64,000 nucleotides of DNA from an uncultured Actinomycetota bacterium. GTDB taxonomy: Bacteria; Actinomycetota; Actinomycetes; Mycobacteriales; QHCD01. Both the position numbers and the translations under genes were made by a program. The notes under the pieces were generated by a model. The model did no database searches, was not told the DNA's origin, and saw only the letters and a list, made by a program, of their open reading frames with translations. Shown here piece by piece: positions 4,393-47,860 of the stretch. The stretch covers positions 41,314-105,313 of the forward strand of contig CAVZJT010000012.1 of NCBI GenBank assembly GCA_963775655.1, in the 5' to 3' direction. The stretch's first letter is position 1. Each line of letters starts with the position of its first letter.

Positions 4393-5856
4393 GTGATCGC
4401 GTCGGTGATCCGCAGGATCAGTGGCTGGTCGCTCCGGCGTCGGCTGATCTCGCTGCTGCTCGTCCTGTTCCTCGTCATGTTCAGCGCGTCCGGCATCGTG
4501 ACCTATCGGGCGCTGAACTCCTTCCTGGCCGGCCGGGTCGACGACCAGGTGAGTCAGCTGCTCGACCGGTACCGCCACCTCGGGCCGCCCGGTGACTTCG
4601 GCGGCGGCCGGTTCGGTCCGCAGCCCATCGGAGTGGTCGGCATCTATCTGAGCCCGGACCACACCCAGGCGATCCCCATCGGGACCAGCAGCGGCGGCAG
4701 CGCGAGCACTCTCTCGTCGGCCGCCATGTCCCGGCTCGCGCAGGTCGTGCCCGGCCAGGCCCCGCAGACCATCTCGCAGCTGCCCGGCAAGTCCAGCAGC
4801 TATCGGGTCGAGGCGAGCACCCTGCCCGATGGCACCACCCTCGTGATCGGGCAGTCGACGGCGGCCGTCGCCGCGACGCTCCAGCGGCTGCTGCTCGTGG
4901 AGGTCGCCGTGGGCGCCGCGGGCCTGCTGATCGTGGCCGTCGTCGGTTCGGGATTGATCGGCGTCGCCCTGCGCCCGCTCCGCCGGATCACCGCGACGAC
5001 CCGGCGGATCGCGGAGTCCGATCTCACCGGCGACGCCGCGCTGGCGCTGCGCGTTCCGGCACCGCCGACGTCGACCGAGGTCGGCCAGCTCGGTCAGGGC
5101 ATGAATCACATGCTCTCGGTGATCGACGCGGCGCTGCTCGAGCGGACGACCGCGCAACGCCAGCTGCAACAGTTCGTCGCGGACGCCTCGCACGAGCTCC
5201 GTACGCCGCTCGCGACCATCCGCGGTTACGCCGACCTCTTCCGCAACGGCGAGGTGACCGACGTCCGTCACCTCGCCGATGCCGGCGTGGCGATGCGGCG
5301 GATCGCGGAGGAGTCCAACCGCATGGGCGTCCTGGTGGACGACCTGCTGCTGCTCGCCCGCCTCGACGAAGGCCGGGCCCTGCAACGGGAGGAGGTCGAT
5401 CTCGCCCTGCTCGCCGCGGATGCTGCCAGTGACCACCGCGTGGTCGATCCGACCCGGCCGGTGATCCTCGACATCCCGCCGCACCCGGTGCCGGTCATCG
5501 GCGACCAGGCCCGACTGCACCAGATACTGGCCAACCTGCTGGGCAACGTCCGGGCCCATACGCCGCCGGGGACGACCGTCACGATCGCGGTACGCGCCGC
5601 CGATGGGCGGGTCGCCCTCGACGTCTGCGACGACGGGCCGGGGATCCCCGCGGCGGAGGTGCCGCGCGTCTTCGACCGGTTCTACCGGGCCGACCCCTCC
5701 CGCGCCCGCGCCAGTGGGGGCACCGGCCTCGGGCTGGCGATCGTCCGCGCGATCGTGACCGCGCACGACGGTCGGACGATGCTGCGCTCGGTACCGGGGT
5801 CCACGGTGGTGTCGGTGTCCCTCCCGGCGTCGGTCGCGGTTCCGGCGGCGCCGTAG
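4393..5856 (+). CDS. Sensor histidine kinase (HAMP-HisKA-HATPase)
   Basis: Two TM segments, H-box [21 protein letters not shown] box [11 protein letters not shown] boxes DDGPGI and [10 protein letters not shown]. Starts 7 nt after the regulator stop. Confidence 0.92.
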
Positions 5857-6400: not shown

Positions 6401-7045
6401 GTGACCGAGCCCGACCAGCCGGCCGAGGCCGTCGGGGTCGGGCCGCATCCCCGGCCGTGGCCGGACGACCCCAGACTCGACCCGGACCTGCTCGAGAACG
6501 GCGACCGGCGCAACGTCGTCGACCGCTACCGTTACTGGCGGCTTTCCGCGATCGTGGACGACCTCGACACCAGGCGGCATGACTTCCACGTCGGTGTCGA
6601 GAACTGGGCGCACGACCTCAACATCGGCAGCGTCGTCCGGACGGCCAACGCCTTCCTGGCCCGCGAGGTGCACGTGATCGGGCGCCGGCGATGGAACCGC
6701 CGCGGCGCGATGGTGACCGATCGCTATCAGCACGTGCGGCATCACGCCGACATCGACGAGCTGGTCGGCTGGTGCCGCGCGCAAGACCTCCCGATCGTGG
6801 CGGTCGACAACCTGCCCGGCGCCGTACCGCTCGAGACGACGACCCTGCCGCGGCGCTGCCTGCTGCTCTTCGGGCAGGAGGGGCCGGGGCTGTCCGAGCC
6901 GGCCCGCGCGGCCGCCGATGTCGTCTGCTCGATCGCGCAGTTCGGCTCGACCCGCTCGATCAACGCCGGGGTCGCCGCCGGCATCGCGATGCACGCCTGG
7001 ATCCGCACCCACGCCCTCCCACCCCTGGACCCCCATTCCGCATGA
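6401..7045 (+). CDS. TrmH/SpoU-family RNA 2'-O-methyltransferase
   Basis: HDLNIGSVVRTANAF, LLFGQEGPGLS and IAQFGSTRSINAGVAAGIAMH SpoU motifs. The GTG at 6401 avoids overlap with pyrE. The last four codons and the stop lie inside repeat element A. Confidence 0.8.
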   Translation: MTEPDQPAEAVGVGPHPRPWPDDPRLDPDLLENGDRRNVVDRYRYWRLSAIVDDLDTRRHDFHVGVENWAHDLNIGSVVRTANAFLAREVHVIGRRRWNRRGAMVTDRYQHVRHHADIDELVGWCRAQDLPIVAVDNLPGAVPLETTTLPRRCLLLFGQEGPGLSEPARAAADVVCSIAQFGSTRSINAGVAAGIAMHAWIRTHALPPLDPHSA

Positions 7046-7186
7046 ACGTGACGTTGATGCGGCTAGAGCGCTTGAACGTGACGTTCAAGCGGAATCGGGG
7101 CGCGAAATCGGGCCACCCCCATTCCGCATGAACGTGACGTTGATGCGGCTAGAGCGCTTGAACGTGACGTTCAAGCGGAATGGGGG
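7031..7186. repeat. Family A palindromic element, two tandem copies (7031-7100 and 7116-7186)
   Basis: Unit CCCCATTCCGCATGAACGTGACGTTGATGCGGCTAGAGCGCTTGAACGTGACGTTCAAGCGGAATGGGG. It has outer inverted ends plus two internal palindromes around AACGT-G-ACGTT. Confidence 0.9.
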
Positions 7187-7204
7187 AGGGGCCGAGTAGA
7201 CCCA

Positions 7205-7990
7205 TCAGGCGTCGATGTCGTCGGTCAGGTCGGCGACCGAGTCGACGACGCGGGACGGCCGGTAGGGGAACCGCTCGATGTCCGCCTTCTTCGTCACGCC
7301 GCTGAGCACCAGCACCGTCTCGAGCCCGGCCTCGATCCCGGAGATCACGTCGGTGTCCATCCGGTCGCCGATCATGACCGTGCTCTCGCTGTGGCCCTGC
7401 ACGGTGTTCAGCGCGGAGCGCATCATCAGCGGGTTGGGCTTCCCGACGAAGTACGGCTCGACCCCGGTCGCCTTGGTGATCATCGCCGCGACCGAGCCGG
7501 TGGCCGGCAACGCTCCTTCGGCCGACGGCCCGGTCGCGTCCGGGTTGGTCGCGATGAAGCGCGCGCCGGCGTCGATCAGCCGGATCGCCCGGGTGATCGA
7601 CTGGAAGCTGTAGGTCCGGGTCTCACCGAGTACGACGTAGTCCGGCGCGACGTCGGTCAGCACGTAGCCGATCGCGTGCAGCGCAGTGGTCAGGCCGGCC
7701 TCTCCGATCACGTGCGCCGTACCGCCCGGACGCTGGGTGTCGAGGAACTGCGCGGTGGCCAGCGCCGAGGTATAGATCGCCCGCTCGGGTACGTCGATGC
7801 CCGCGCCGCGCAGCCGGGCGTGCAGGTCGCGTGGCGTGTAGATCGAGTTGTTGGTCAGAACCAGGTAGCGCTTGCCTGACGCCTCGAGCCGCCCGATGAA
7901 GTCGATCGCTCCGGGGATCGGTCGCCCTTCGTCGACCAGGACGCCGTCCATGTCGGTGAGCCAGCATTCGGCGGTCCGTCGTTCGCTCAT
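7205..7990 (-). CDS. HAD-IIA family hydrolase (NagD-like)
   Basis: DMDGVL motif I, LTNNS, and GDRMDTDV motif. Confidence 0.88.
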
Positions 7991-15697: not shown

Positions 15698-15760
15698 AAG
15701 GCCAAGGCTACCTGCGGCCCACCCCCACCCGGTCCTCCCTCGCCCGGCCGCCCCTCACCC

Positions 15761-15818
15761 CCATGATCGTGATCGGAAGAAGCCGCGACACGCCGACGGA
15801 ATCCGATCACGATCATGG
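15761..15818. repeat. Family C hairpin with the conserved CGGCGTGTCG loop core (inverted orientation)
   Basis: Perfect 17-bp arms CCATGATCGTGATCGGA / TCCGATCACGATCATGG around a 24-nt loop. The loop reverse complement contains CGGCGTGTCGCGG. Confidence 0.85.
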
Positions 15819-15908
15819 AATGGGGAGATGGAGGGGAGAGACGAACGAGAGGCGAGGGGAGCCAGAGGGCGGTGCGGTCCGGTGGGGGAGCTGTGCCACG
15901 CTGGGTCG

Positions 15909-20130: not shown

Positions 20131-21166
<1,036 letters not shown>

Positions 21167-21220
21167 CCCTCTCGATCATTCGCGGCTGACCTGAGCCGGT
21201 CACCCGCCTCTGCCGACGTG

Positions 21221-21303
21221 AAACAAACGCACTAGTAGTGCGTTTTGGTCGCAGACACGCCGTAATGCGACCCTCAAAACGCACTCCTAGTGCATTTTGG
21301 TCG
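21221..21303. repeat. Family B hairpin doublet (inverted orientation)
   Basis: AAACAAACGCACTAGTAGTGCGTTTTGGTC, spacer GCAGACACGCCGTAATGCGACCC, then TCAAAACGCACTCCTAGTGCATTTTGGTCGA. The spacer reverse complement contains TACGGCGTGTC. Confidence 0.85.
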
Positions 21304-21527: not shown

Positions 21528-21692
21528 AGCGACCCGGACCGCGCAGGGCGGGAGTGGGGGACCCAGACATCCCGGCCCGACCGGCGCGTGGCGCCCGGGC
21601 CGGACGCCGGACGGACCCGGCTCGGGGTGAAGCGGACCTGTGGCCGGGCGATTCTCCGTCCGAACCCGACAGCTCACTCCATAGGCGTGGGG
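21528..21692 (+). promoter_or_regulatory. Cyclic-di-AMP (ydaO/yuaA-type) riboswitch
   Basis: GGGAGUGGGGGACCCA (21550-21565), CGGGGUGAAGCGG (21623-21635) and CCGAACCCGACAGCUCACUCCAUAGGCG (21660-21687) match my recollection of the ydaO blocks. It ends 12-17 nt before the Rpf-like ATG. The 5' boundary is approximate. Confidence 0.7.
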
Positions 21693-21703
21693 AAGGGCAT
21701 TCC

Positions 21704-22342
21704 ATGTCCACAGCGCTGTCGACGAGCGTGGAGTCATCCGGCGGCCAGTCGCCCTCGGCGTGGTCGGGCGGGCTTCTCGCAGTCGGGGGCACCGTCGCCA
21801 TCAGCGCGCCGGCCGGGGCCGATCCGTCGGCCAACACGTGGTACCAACTTCGACTGTGCGAATCGAGCAACAACTACTCGATCAACACCGGCAACGGCTA
21901 CTACGGTGCCTACCAGTTCGACCTGCCGACGTGGCGGAGCGTCCGCGGAACCGGATATCCGAATCAGAATCCGCCGGCGGAGCAGGACTATCGGGCGTTG
22001 GCGCTGTACCGGATGCGCGGATGGGAGCCGTGGACCTGCGCGCAGATCCTGGGTCTGCGTGAGGACAGCGATGCCGGATCGGGTGTCTGGCCGCCGCGTC
22101 CGGGTGGGCCGACGACCAAGGCGCCGCCGTGGCCGGGCGTGCAGTACTTCTTCGGCAACTTCGGCCCGCACATCCGCGAATGGCAGTTGCAGATGCGCAA
22201 GCGCGGTTACCCCTTCCAGGGCACCGGCTACTTCGGGACCAAGACGCTGAAGTACGTCAAGATCCTGCAGCAGCGCAACGGCCTGCACGTCGTCGGCTTC
22301 ATCGGTCCGAAGACCTGGGCCGCGGCCTGGACCGGCCGCTAA
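21704..22342 (+). CDS. Rpf-like transglycosylase with C-terminal peptidoglycan-binding domain
   Basis: CESSNNYSINTGNGYYGAYQFDLPTW..EQDYRALALY transglycosylase-like core. C-terminal REWQLQMRKRGY..GYFGTKTLKYVKILQQRNGL..GPKTW resembles PG_binding_1. Start chosen directly after the riboswitch. Confidence 0.75.
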   Translation: MSTALSTSVESSGGQSPSAWSGGLLAVGGTVAISAPAGADPSANTWYQLRLCESSNNYSINTGNGYYGAYQFDLPTWRSVRGTGYPNQNPPAEQDYRALALYRMRGWEPWTCAQILGLREDSDAGSGVWPPRPGGPTTKAPPWPGVQYFFGNFGPHIREWQLQMRKRGYPFQGTGYFGTKTLKYVKILQQRNGLHVVGFIGPKTWAAAWTGR

Positions 22343-22357: not shown

Positions 22358-22573
22358 GACCAAAACGCACTAGGAGTGCGTTTTGGGGGTCCGGCTACGG
22401 CGTGTCGCGGACCACAACGCACTACTAGTGCGTTTTGGTCACGTCACCCGGCGCCGCGTCCGCCGCGGTTGCCGCTGTCTCGCCCCCGCGTGGACAAAAC
22501 CCACTACTAGTGGGTTTTGGACGGGTCGTACGGCGTGTCGTGGTCCACAACCCACTAGTAGTGGGTTTTGTCC
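22358..22573. repeat. Two family B hairpin doublets (GCAC type 22358-22440, CCAC type 22492-22573)
   Basis: GACCAAAACGCACTAGGAGTGCGTTTTGG-..CTACGGCGTGTCGCGG-ACCACAACGCACTACTAGTGCGTTTTGGTC, and GGACAAAACCCACTACTAGTGGGTTTTGG-..GTACGGCGTGTCGTGG-TCCACAACCCACTAGTAGTGGGTTTTGTCC. They lie in a convergent intergenic gap. Confidence 0.9.
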
Positions 22574-22606: not shown

Positions 22607-22915
22607 CTAAGGCAGTTTCGACGCGAGGACGTCGATCTTCTCGATCTTCGGCCCTTCGCTGAACAGATCGGATGCCTGCGCCATCAATGCCTCGGCGACC
22701 CGGCCCGACAGATGTGCGTCGCGGCCGGCGTCGTCGGGGAAGACGTCGAAGATCCCGTACGTCGACGGCCCGAGCTTGATCGCGAACCACGCCGTAGTCG
22801 CGGGCTCCTGCTCGACCAGCGCCTGACCGGAATTGAGGAAGCTCTCGACCGCGCTCTCCTGGCCCGGCTTCGCCTGCAACGTCACGAGAAGTCCGACGGT
22901 AGGTACGTTCGCCAT
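22607..22915 (-). CDS. Antibiotic-biosynthesis-monooxygenase (ABM) family protein
   Basis: ~102 aa from MANVPTVGLLVTLQAKPGQESAVESFL..TTAWFAIKLGPSTYGIFDVF. Ferredoxin-like ABM pattern. Confidence 0.65.
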   Translation of the reverse strand: MANVPTVGLLVTLQAKPGQESAVESFLNSGQALVEQEPATTAWFAIKLGPSTYGIFDVFPDDAGRDAHLSGRVAEALMAQASDLFSEGPKIEKIDVLASKLP

Positions 22916-34892: not shown

Positions 34893-34955
34893 GCCGCCGT
34901 GCGGCGCGCCTGGCCTGGCTTGGCGTGGCTTGGCGTGGAGTGCATGGCGTGGCGC

Positions 34956-35160
34956 GGACAAAACCCACTACTAGTGGGTTTTGGGCACCCCGTACGGCGT
35001 GTCGTGGACCAAAACCCACTAGTAGTGGGTTTTGTCCAGCCGGTCGCCTGCCGTCGCGCCGCCCACCCCTCGACCCCTGACCAAAACGCACTAGGAGTGC
35101 GTTTTGGGGGGCTCGTACGGCGTGTCGTGGACCACAACGCACTAGGAGTGCGTTTTGGTC
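34956..35160. repeat. Two family B hairpin doublets (CCAC type 34956-35037, GCAC type 35079-35160)
   Basis: Same architecture as 22358-22573 but with the opposite order of the two subtypes. Both spacers read GTACGGCGTGTCGTGG. Confidence 0.9.
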
Positions 35161-35240
35161 GAGCGCCGAGCGCCGAGCGCCGAGCGCCGAGCGCCGAGCG
35201 CCGAGCGCCGAGCGCCGAGCGCCGAGCGCCGAGCGCCGAG
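35161..35240. repeat. Heptanucleotide microsatellite (GAGCGCC) x 11.4
   Basis: Eleven perfect tandem GAGCGCC units plus GAG, directly abutting the family B element and 95 nt upstream of purS. Confidence 0.95.
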
Positions 35241-35335
35241 GCGGGCGGTCGTTTCGGGGGGCGGTCCGTTTGGTCGGGGACGGCGATGGGCGGCTACCCT
35301 GGCTGTGCCGATCCCGACTGCCGCAAGGAGAGCAC

Positions 35336-39369: not shown

Positions 39370-39438
39370 CCCCCCATGATCAAGAGGGAATTCGTACGGC
39401 GTTTCGTACCGGAATCCCCTCTTGATCATGGGCGGGGG
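39370..39438. repeat. Family C long hairpin with GGCGTTTCG loop core
   Basis: CCATGATCAAGAGGGAATTCGTAC / GTACCGGAATCCCCTCTTGATCATGG arms (about 22 of 25 paired) around GGCGTTTC, flanked by C and G runs. About 100 nt upstream of purF. Confidence 0.85.
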
Positions 39439-46408: not shown

Positions 46409-47566
46409 GTGAGCGGGGCTGGCCTGCGGGTTGCGGTGGTGGGGCTGGGTTTCGGGCAGGACTTCGTCCCTATCTATCTCAGCCATCCCGAGGTCTCGTC
46501 CGTGGTGCTGGTCGAGCCGGACGCCGTACGCCGCCGCGAGATCGCGACCCGCTTCGGTATCGACGACGGTGTCGCCGACATCGACGATGTCCTCACCGAC
46601 CCGACGGTCGATGCCGTGCACATCCTTGCTCCGGTTCACCTGCACGCCGACCTCGTCGTCGCGACCTTGCAGGCGGGGAAGCACTGCGCGTGCGCCGTAC
46701 CGATGGCGACGACGATCGAGGACCTCGACCGCATCATCGCCGCGCAGGAGAGCAGCGGCAGGAACTACATGATGATGGAGACCATGGTGTTCGGCCGCGA
46801 ATACCTGACGGTCGAAGACGCCTATCGCCGGGGCGAATTCGGCGCACTGACGCTGTATCGAGGGTTCCACATCCAGAACCTCGACGGCTTCCCGTCGTAC
46901 TGGCAGGGCTATCCGCCGATGCACTACGTCACCCACGCGCTGTCGCCGATACTCGCGCTGCTCGAGACGGGTGTGCAGAGCGTTCAGTGCCGAGGCGCGG
47001 GCCGCCTGACGCCGGATCGCACCGCCGGCGGCTTCGACAACCCGTTCCCGACCGAGGTGGGCCTGTTCGCGCTGCGCGACAGCGATGTGCTCGCGGACGT
47101 GACGATGTCCTTCTTCCAGACCGCGCGGAGCTACCTCGAGGGGTTCGCCGTCTACGGCGAACGCCGCGGTGTGGAATGGCCGGTCGACAACGACGGAGAC
47201 CTGACGGTCTTCGACATGCACCCGCCGGCGACGGGCAGCCGCGGAAACGTCGTCGAGACCGCGGCGCTCACGCCTCGCGACTTCTCCGATGCGCTCCCGG
47301 CGGAGGTCGCCCCGTTCACCCGTGCCGCGGACGTGTTGCTGCCGGGGATGCCGGCGAAGGTACGCATGGAAGCCCACCACAGCGGGTCGCATCCGTTCCT
47401 CGTGCACGAGTTCATCAGCAGCATCGTCGAGCACCGCGCGCCGCGGATCGACGCCTATCGCGCGGCAACCTGGACCGCACCGGGAATCTGCGCCCACCAA
47501 TCCGCGCTCGCCGGTGGAGCCGAGATCGCCGTCCCCGCCTACACCGCCCATTCCGCTTCGACGTGA
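46409..47566 (+). CDS. Gfo/Idh/MocA-family oxidoreductase
   Basis: LRVAVVGLGFGQDF Rossmann start and a typical EKP-like middle region. The last codons (..AHSAST*) lie in a degenerate family A element. Confidence 0.8.
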   Translation: MSGAGLRVAVVGLGFGQDFVPIYLSHPEVSSVVLVEPDAVRRREIATRFGIDDGVADIDDVLTDPTVDAVHILAPVHLHADLVVATLQAGKHCACAVPMATTIEDLDRIIAAQESSGRNYMMMETMVFGREYLTVEDAYRRGEFGALTLYRGFHIQNLDGFPSYWQGYPPMHYVTHALSPILALLETGVQSVQCRGAGRLTPDRTAGGFDNPFPTEVGLFALRDSDVLADVTMSFFQTARSYLEGFAVYGERRGVEWPVDNDGDLTVFDMHPPATGSRGNVVETAALTPRDFSDALPAEVAPFTRAADVLLPGMPAKVRMEAHHSGSHPFLVHEFISSIVEHRAPRIDAYRAATWTAPGICAHQSALAGGAEIAVPAYTAHSAST

Positions 47567-47585
47567 CGTTCACGCAGAATGGGCG
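47545..47585. repeat. Degenerate single-hairpin copy of family A
   Basis: CGCCCATTCCGCTTCGACGTGACGTTCACGCAGAATGGGCG. It keeps the CCCATTC/GAATGGG ends and the ACGTGACGTT core. Confidence 0.75.
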
Positions 47586-47606
47586 CGGGGTCGCCTCGGC
47601 AGCGGA

Positions 47607-47730: not shown

Positions 47731-47772
47731 AGTGCAGCGCTCGGACATGACGTTCACAGGCTGCCCCCGTTT

Positions 47773-47825
47773 GGCATCAACGTGACGTTGATGCCGCTAG
47801 ATGGCTTGAACGTGACGTTCAAGCC
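47773..47825. repeat. Family A core pair (two perfect 11+1+11 palindromes)
   Basis: GGCATCAACGT-G-ACGTTGATGCC (47773-47795), GCTAGAT, then GGCTTGAACGT-G-ACGTTCAAGCC (47803-47825). Confidence 0.9.
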
Positions 47826-47860
47826 GATTGGCGGCGGGTCGGCGGCGGGGGGTCGGTGGG

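Follow-up and report, generated by a model that had tools for sequence, protein, structure and literature searches.

Family B, a probable palindromic repeat of the REP/BIME/REPIN kind, with a doublet as its unit, in an uncultured soil actinobacterium

Families of repetitive extragenic palindromic (REP) sequences occur as singletons, dimers and trimers. Their types can differ by complementary changes in the stem and combine as homo- and heterodimers, their conserved spacers have complementary ends, their dimers fold separately or as one large stem-loop, and some families are inserted within small GC palindromes (PMC3733652; PMC2817692). The TRIT motif ('Tuberculosis Rho-independent terminator') of Mycobacterium is conserved, largely palindromic and bidirectional, with about 150 copies near gene ends, and its authors inferred a possible binding factor (PMC3152330). 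The repeat described here, family B, was found in a stretch of 64,000 nucleotides (the window; about 70% G+C over its whole length) of contig CAVZJT010000012.1, from an uncultured Actinomycetota bacterium (assembly GCA_963775655.1). Family B is best explained as a new family of lineage-specific interspersed palindromic repeats in an uncultured soil actinobacterium, of the kind represented by REPs, bacterial interspersed mosaic elements (BIMEs) and REP doublets forming hairpins (REPINs). The probability of this reading is put at about 0.7.

A search of the window with the degenerate pattern AAAACSCACTNNNAGTGSGTTTT, allowing up to three mismatches, returned ten hairpins, against none in 100 dinucleotide-preserving shuffles. 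The ten are arranged as five doublets (d1 to d5, Table 1), each 82–83 bp long with its flanks and with hairpin starts 51–52 bp apart. All are self-complementary at arm position 6, six with G:C (GCAC type) and four with C:G (CCAC type); the latter four are the hairpins of d3 and d4, and in each the left-arm C is matched by a right-arm G, as stated in a preliminary description of this DNA. The further statement that most stems are palindromes of 11+1+11 nucleotides was generous. The centre is an asymmetric AGG/CCT in four of the ten, an ACAAC arm goes uncompensated in three second hairpins, and the arms of d1 contain two further mismatches. CTAG was suspected of being under-represented and is so in the window, with 30 occurrences against 64 expected, ten of them within family B and three within family A, another palindromic repeat. 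As had been reported, d2 and d3 together occupy the space from the stop of an rpf-like gene (22342) to that of a convergent small open reading frame (ORF; 22607), at intervals of 15, 51 and 33 nt. The identification of the former gene was confirmed by its Pfam domains, whereas the 102-aa ORF, earlier named 'ABM', has no Pfam match at E<=0.001, nor does the gene in the same context in relatives have a recorded one. Doublet d1 is opposite in orientation to d2–d5, as judged by the asymmetric spacer, a point that had been overlooked; it lies 53 nt past the fba stop and about 400 nt ahead of the rpf start.

The unit of family B was shown to be the doublet of about 82 bp, an oriented inverted repeat, and not the single hairpin. 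It runs from an outer flank through the arm AAAAC-S-CACTA-S-TAGTG-S-GTTTT, 8–10 variable nucleotides, the invariant CGTACGGCGTGTCG and the same arm again to a complementary outer flank. A doublet can fold as two small hairpins or as one long one, since its arms are palindromes in their own right. The predicted ground state of every doublet is one long hairpin (minimum free energy, MFE, -40 to -62 kcal/mol; z -5.7 to -9.6), with the invariant motif placed in or near the loop, and the RNAalifold consensus of 19 doublets is likewise one long hairpin. In d3 the two loops, ACT and AGT, are complementary, so the whole doublet is a near-perfect inverted repeat. The one-long-hairpin model pairs 83.9% of the alignment cells and contains 31 double-change cells, a count reached by 0 of 500 shuffles; the two-short-hairpin model pairs 78.6% and contains 12, a count reached by 116 of 500. 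The outer-flank pairs 6-86 to 9-83, which span the doublet, are paired in 14–16 of the 19 doublets with two or three pair types each (GACC/GGTC, GGAC/GTCC, CGAC/GTCG and GAAC/GTTC), compared with just five of the 19 for flank pairs within a single hairpin. Covariation is clearer for pairing across the doublet than within hairpins, and dyad symmetry matters at the doublet level. The core CACTA.TAGTG and most arm positions are invariant and do not covary. Of the earlier account of an 82-bp doublet with a conserved spacer, the length stood and the spacer did so by half: CGGCGTGTC, in the 3' half and usually in the form CGTACGGCGTGTCG, is invariant in 19 of 19 doublets, and the 8–10 nt on the 5' side vary freely. 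An invariant stretch beside a freely varying one indicates that the conservation is not just a matter of recency.

The sequencing runs that contain this sequence are soil metagenomes, and the closest named Rpf homologues, from Nakamurella and Jatrophihabitans, are about 57–62% identical. Three soil contigs from the Joint Genome Institute (L082–L084) come from close relatives, with Rpf 97% identical to that of the window, and more distant contigs encode an Rpf of 60–73% identity. A collection of genomes was scanned with AAAACNCACTNNNAGTGNGTTTT, in which both swapped positions are free (N), so that the scan is unbiased for them. At least 81 loci were listed, 70 of the 81 being unrelated matches in other organisms, and one metagenome-assembled genome (MAG) was informative. 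This sister MAG, 'uncultured Actinomycetota MFD05442.bin.3.622' (CAWINQ01), contains a locus (L071) syntenic with 30.7–36.8 kb of the window at about 78–90% nucleotide identity, and about 89% was measured in one stretch common to the two genomes; all counts of its hairpins, sites and loci given here are among the matches listed by the scan and are lower bounds. Family B was found in L082–L084 and in the sister MAG and is absent from the more distant relatives. It is therefore confined to a narrow clade.

Within that clade the repeat is dispersed and is not the product of a few recent duplications. It occupies three unrelated intergenic sites in the window, and the sister MAG has at least 29 hairpins at no fewer than 12 sites, in at least 11 loci on five contigs. 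Soil-metagenome contigs break at a CCAC-type hairpin and run on into several different flanks; these contigs, aligned to d3, end within the repeat and are informative on flanks rather than on arm variants. None of the long ORFs inspected contains a family B hairpin. G-type and C-type elements are adjacent at two of the three window sites and at five of the 12 listed in the sister MAG. Among 15 sites classified by a crude frame scan on third-position G+C, about five are convergent, seven tandem, one divergent and two unclear. Most sites are thus behind stop codons or in convergent spacers. The window elements begin 15–63 nt past stop codons and far from the next start. Of the orientations at tandem sites, four are sense and four antisense to the upstream gene, and the spacer reads '+' in contig coordinates at ten of the 12 listed sister-MAG sites, across five contigs (GC skew at 8 kb was uninformative). 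Searches of viral-contig and plasmid collections gave no family B match, and a metagenome scan with a spacer-anchored pattern gave eight matches, none of which carries the hairpins. A search of Rfam with the elements found nothing at gathering thresholds, and at E<=10 just eukaryotic miRNA-like matches typical of any long hairpin. Exact-protein look-ups of the window PurS and the 102-aa ORF returned no record. In metatranscriptome runs the matches were short conserved pieces of fba from other organisms, and coverage over the family B elements was zero.

Copy number changes in steps of one module. The 3' spacer of rpf, which holds d2, 51 nt and d3 in the window, contains one CCAC singlet in L082 and L083, where d2 is missing. 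Past the purC stop, the window has d4, d5 and a (CGAGCGC)x11.6 array, and the sister MAG has one doublet with arm states (G,G,G,G), followed by an insert described below. A triplet is present in L006. The singlets (L082 2570, L017 3294 and L042 3807) combine the left flank of a first hairpin with the right flank of a second, as expected from deletion of one 51-bp module by recombination between direct repeats. Doublet d1 is conserved in place in L082–L084, with three uncompensated or indel differences, and the first hairpins of d5 and d2 are identical over 32 nt. Family B has thus been shown to be built of 51-bp modules (one, two or three) that expand and contract, and its sites to be gained or lost between genomes with a 97%-identical neighbouring protein. 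Short tandem repeats adjoin the elements in both genomes: (CGAGCGC)x11.6 after d5 (35160–35240) and a TGGCG-type repeat before d4 (34911–34954) in the window, and (AGCGGAC)n and (GCGGGC)n at element ends in the sister MAG (L077 about 5410–5434; L006 about 7285–7306). These repeats may have arisen by replication slippage beside the stable hairpins.

The preliminary description had regarded the G:C to C:G swap at position 6 as compensatory in every hairpin. This does not hold in the sister MAG, where the at least 29 listed hairpins comprise eight with G:C, seven with C:G, 13 with G opposite G and one with C opposite A. When oriented by the spacer, the 13 G-opposite-G hairpins are all of one class and lie in doublets with arm states (C,G,G,G) or (G,G,G,G). 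Unpaired arm substitutions in a larger sample, which had been named as the observation that would speak against compensation, are indeed numerous: the 37 distinct hairpins include 15 with GC, ten with CG and 12 unpaired at this position, and their whole-hairpin covariation score is not above that of shuffles, being matched by 50 of 500. Across 42 hairpins, too, covariation does not rise above shuffles. Position 6 holds G or C, freely combined, in 83 of 84 half-sites. The A-to-C change that gives second hairpins their ACAAC arm is unpaired in 11 of 37 and compensated in none, and the orthologous d1 copies of the window and L082 differ by single arm substitutions that break pairs. Doublet d4 and a non-orthologous sister-MAG doublet (L025) are 95% identical over 80 nt and have the variable spacer part GGCACCCCG in common; between them, an arm base has changed without compensation (C in d4, G in L025) and an outer-flank pair has changed on both sides. 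Genuine double changes preserving the symmetry do occur, among them G:C/C:G at position 6, A:T/C:G at position 1 and those in the outer flanks, and dyad symmetry is a real, non-chance property of family B.

The outer flanks (GACC..GGTC in one, GGAC..GTCC in the other), the loop and the variable part of the spacer also distinguish the two types, which are therefore subfamilies related by descent. Flank, loop and arm states are common to d2 and d5, and likewise to d3 and d4, so that the swap in the window represents one or two evolutionary events inherited with the copies, not four or ten independent ones. It is an inherited subfamily marker and not evidence that each hairpin is kept paired. The four arm arrangements (C,G,C,G), (C,G,G,G), (G,G,G,G) and (G,C,G,C) form a chain of single steps, in which the second and third, abundant in the sister genome, look like intermediates between the window types. 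Since these mismatched intermediates are abundant, pairing at position 6 is unnecessary for a copy to persist or spread.

The conserved half of the spacer recurs in a second family of long hairpins, family C, where CGTACGGCGTTTCG or CGTCGGCGTGTCG heads the loop. The stems of family C (CCATGATC..GATCATGG) are unrelated to those of family B and covary among copies. All four exact occurrences of CGTACGGCGTKTCG in the window are at the centre of family B or family C elements. This shared apical motif is the strongest hint of a specific recognition partner. It is conceivable, and is offered tentatively, that families B and C are one hairpin-repeat system, defined by the apical motif CGTACGGCGT(G/T)TCG on interchangeable long stems, with the motif as the handle for an actinobacterial protein that copies or processes the hairpins. 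Possible candidates are an RNA-binding factor and a single-strand nuclease or transposase other than a RAYT (REP-associated tyrosine transposase). A system of this kind would be a REPIN-like replicator outside the bacterial groups of the REP/RAYT papers. Two neighbouring features also involve family C. In the sister MAG, an insert of about 1.3 kb between purS and purC (L071 1594–2976; window spacer 34893–35335, which lacks it) contains an ORF resembling vicinal oxygen chelate (VOC) proteins and glyoxalases, and is flanked by two family C hairpins in the same orientation. Just past the fba stop, a 12-nt insertion relative to L082 (window 21167–21179) creates CCCTCTCGATCAT, which is the right arm of a family C hairpin in the MAG (L071 2957–2969) and may be a family C remnant.

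Taken together, family B presents short imperfect palindromes at many unrelated extragenic sites, regularly spaced clusters with half-conserved linkers and mixed subtypes, and pairs of inverted palindromes that form one long conserved hairpin, which are the marks of REPs and BIMEs (the first two) and of REPINs (the third). In the mechanism proposed, copies would be propagated by a protein that recognises the hairpin, the apical motif or both; the candidates are a RAYT-like HUH enzyme or another protein. Recombination between the 51-bp direct repeats would then change copy number. A copy inserted behind a gene would give its transcript a very stable stem-loop from either strand, and this stem-loop could act as a 3'-end barrier, by termination or exonuclease protection, as described for REPs.

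Several points weigh against this reading. The defining partner of REPINs is a RAYT, a Y1/HUH transposase encoded by a single-copy gene with the same repeats on either side. Searches of the window and related loci with E. coli RayT (tblastn and phmmer) found no RAYT or IS200-like homologue below E=0.9; with a distant query and about 190 kb covered out of genomes of several Mb, this is a weak test. No target-site duplication or clean empty site favouring transposition over deletion was seen, and the differences in presence are unpolarised because the more distant relatives have no family B. Neither end tag of the GTAG/CGTC REP superfamilies is present: the termini are GAC(C)AAAAC and GTTTT(G)GTC, and GTAG, as the tag is defined in PMC3733652, occurs only at the centre of hairpins with an AGT loop. 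Kinship among the sequences can exceed the shuffles used as pair-count controls (0 and 116 of 500) without any structure. The bias among site classes is a trend only (one divergent of 13 classified; P about 0.13), and family C lies in divergent spacers at two of five sites. The small hairpins are followed by only four T and are not called as terminators, and any role as a 3'-end stem-loop is inferred.

Table 1. Positions of family B doublets, family C hairpins and the genes beside d2 and d3 (window coordinates unless a MAG locus is named)
Feature	Coordinates	Strand	Core hairpins	Remarks
Doublet d1	21220–21302	-	21224–21246, 21276–21298	GCAC type; outer arm CAAAC/GTTTG-like; spacer CGACACGCCGTA on +
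Motif core of d1, TACGGCGTGTC	21254–21264	-
Doublet d2	22358–22440	+	22362–22384, 22414–22436	GCAC type; arm states G,C,G,C; 15 nt past rpf stop
Doublet d3	22492–22573	+	22496–22518, 22547–22569	CCAC type; arm states C,G,C,G; MFE -61.9 kcal/mol, z -9.6
Doublet d4	34956–35037	+	34960–34982, 35011–35033	CCAC type; 63 nt past purC stop
Doublet d5	35079–35160	+	35083–35105, 35134–35156	GCAC type; 41 nt past d4, 175 nt ahead of purS
Apical/spacer motif CGTACGGCGTGTCG	22527–22540	+		Exact also at 34991–35004 and 35114–35127; two mismatches at 22394–22407
Family C hairpin CCATGATCAAGAGGG..CCCTCTTGATCATGG	39370–39436	+		Loop begins CGTACGGCGTTTCG; MFE -54 kcal/mol, z -10
Family C hairpin, reverse orientation	15758–15820	-		Loop with CGTCGGCGTGTCG (one A missing)
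Family C copy	MAG L018 4290–4347
Family C copy	MAG L071 1594–1659
Family C copy	MAG L071 2913–2976
rpf-like gene	21704–22342	+		PF06737 and PF01471 (transglycosylase-like and peptidoglycan-binding domains); 3' end adjoins d2
Convergent 102-aa ORF	22607–22915	-		3' end adjoins d3; called as a gene in relatives

The alternative that survives best, doubtful as it is, makes the hairpins dedicated bidirectional terminators or 3'-end RNA stabilisers similar to TRIT and maintained by selection on RNA structure, and the swap true compensatory evolution of an RNA stem. The elements start at the distances past stops given above, about a third of the sites (five of 15) are convergent, and the same rpf 3' spacer of more distant relatives holds a plain, ordinary GC-rich hairpin. 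The RNA stems are very stable from either strand, an A-tract and a U-tract border each small stem, and TRIT is a precedent for conserved palindromic terminator-like motifs in Actinomycetota (PMC3152330). This explanation has difficulty with the G opposite G in 13 of the 29 listed sister-genome hairpins and with an ACAAC arm that is never compensated, and structure alone leaves the invariant, non-palindromic motif of 9–14 nt unexplained. The U-tract is only four nucleotides long, and mycobacterial RNA polymerase requires a U-tract (PMC3993855). Divergent spacers also hold one family B site and two of the five sites of family C, which has the same loop. A role at transcript ends is in any case compatible with a REP/BIME/REPIN-type repeat, because REPs can also terminate or stabilise transcripts.

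It is unlikely that each palindrome is a site for a dimeric DNA-binding protein, such as a global regulator or nucleoid factor, with sites spaced by five turns, a third site in the spacer and position 6 tolerating G or C. Several properties of the sequence fit such a protein: the core and most arm positions are invariant instead of covarying, G or C in 83 of 84 half-sites suits a degenerate half-site better than a stem, the centre-to-centre spacing is fixed at 51–52 bp, and the spacer motif is invariant. The sites, however, are found in convergent spacers and downstream of unrelated housekeeping genes (fba, purC), and copy number and presence differ between genomes whose neighbouring protein is 97% identical; a classical operator role fits poorly with both. 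A half-site model would not call for the covariation seen across the doublet in the flanks beyond the core, and no candidate protein was identified.

Less probable again is an origin of the doublets as miniature inverted-repeat transposable elements (MITEs) that a DDE transposase mobilises. Covarying outer arms that act as terminal inverted repeats, presence that varies between close relatives and dispersed copies are in keeping with a MITE. No consistent target-site duplication was found around the five window doublets or the MAG copies, an nhmmer search of the window and related loci turned up no longer parent element sharing these ends, and MITEs do not typically form singlets or tandem 51-bp modules.

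Other identities were rejected: a canonical intrinsic terminator with a U-tract of about 7–9 nt (four T follow the small stem and none the long one, and a scan calls one of the ten hairpins, no more than in shuffles); an operator in the promoters of a coherent regulon (about five of 15 sites are convergent and one divergent, and the neighbours, fba, rpf, purC/purS and others, are unrelated); a CRISPR array (there are only one to three units per site and half of the 'spacer' is invariant); a DnaA box (TTGTCCAC at the d3 ends matches 8/9 in d3 only, and 7/9 or worse elsewhere); parS next to d1 (a half-site only); NrdR, CRP and LexA boxes (neither spacing nor sequence fits); and attC R-boxes (no fit).

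Three further observations concern the surroundings. A match to the cyclic di-AMP (ydaO/yuaA) riboswitch covers the full model length at 21582–21702 (+), with 34.4 bits against a gathering score of 38 and E=6.4e-6, and ends 2 nt ahead of the start codon of the rpf-like gene (21704). A ydaO-type leader on rpf or a cell-wall hydrolase gene is a known actinobacterial arrangement. The fba gene (class II fructose-bisphosphate aldolase, 20131–21166) has a 1-nt insertion relative to L082 at about 20995–21003 (ATCGTCGGGCCACATG versus ATCGT-GCACCACATG), which shifts the frame of the last 55 or so codons; the frameshift is real or else reflects an assembly error of the kind met in long-read MAGs. Family A, also a palindromic doublet repeat, has the form CCCCCATTCC-GCATGAACGTGACGTTGATGCGG-CTAGA-GCGCTTGAACGTGACGTTCAAGCGG-AATGGGGG and occurs at 7029–7194, 47554–47593 and 47763–47842; the first of these is a tandem duplication with an 86-bp period in a convergent spacer. 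In two copies the first hairpin of family A contains a G/G mismatch, and in the copy at 47763 its pairing is perfect (C:G), a polymorphism like that of family B.

Family B offers a compact case for following the evolution of palindromic repeats within genomes, with its subfamilies, mismatched intermediates and fast turnover of 51-bp modules. Its invariant apical motif, present on two unrelated stem families, is a concrete bait for a partner protein. The repeats break short-read assemblies of this soil lineage, and they could be misannotated as small RNAs, terminators or operators.

In Proteobacteria and a small number of further groups, repeats of the REP/BIME/REPIN type have been described thoroughly; the literature searched holds little on them in Actinomycetota. 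The MIRU-type repeats of mycobacteria (mycobacterial interspersed repetitive units) are intergenic modules of about 50 bp whose copy number varies between close relatives; they are not hairpin palindromes, and some are translated within overlapping small ORFs. Family B resembles them in module size and copy-number variation, with a module made up of a palindrome and a spacer. Within the phylum TRIT comes closest, but its position and sequence are different. It is situated mostly within the end of the coding sequence (about position -8) and has been reported only in Mycobacterium (PMC3152330), whereas family B starts 15–63 nt past the stop and has no Rfam or sequence match that would place it in TRIT.

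The spacer of REPINs is not known to be their most conserved region, whereas family B has an invariant apical motif of 9–14 nt, common to a second stem family. In the REPIN–RAYT systems of Pseudomonas and Enterobacteria (PMC3116915; PMC3337134), a pair of inverted REPs with its spacer evolves as one long hairpin, as in family B, and the singlets resembling decay products of doublets, the subfamilies and the mismatched intermediates of family B are REPIN-like. Compared with REPs, each arm of family B is itself an almost perfect palindrome with a centre of 1–3 nt, and the host is an actinobacterium, a phylum unmentioned in the REP survey (PMC3733652). With the REPs and BIMEs of Enterobacteria and the GTAG/CGTC superfamilies it has in common that it is a short extragenic palindrome in many copies (PMC3733652; PMC2817692; PMC3333891). 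Its C-rich 5' and G-rich 3' flanks resemble those of REP families embedded in GC palindromes, and its two subtypes cluster at one site like the palindromic unit (PU) types of BIMEs. In its multimers, stem-change subtypes, homo- and heterodimers, spacers and large stem-loop, family B matches the anatomy of REPs almost throughout.

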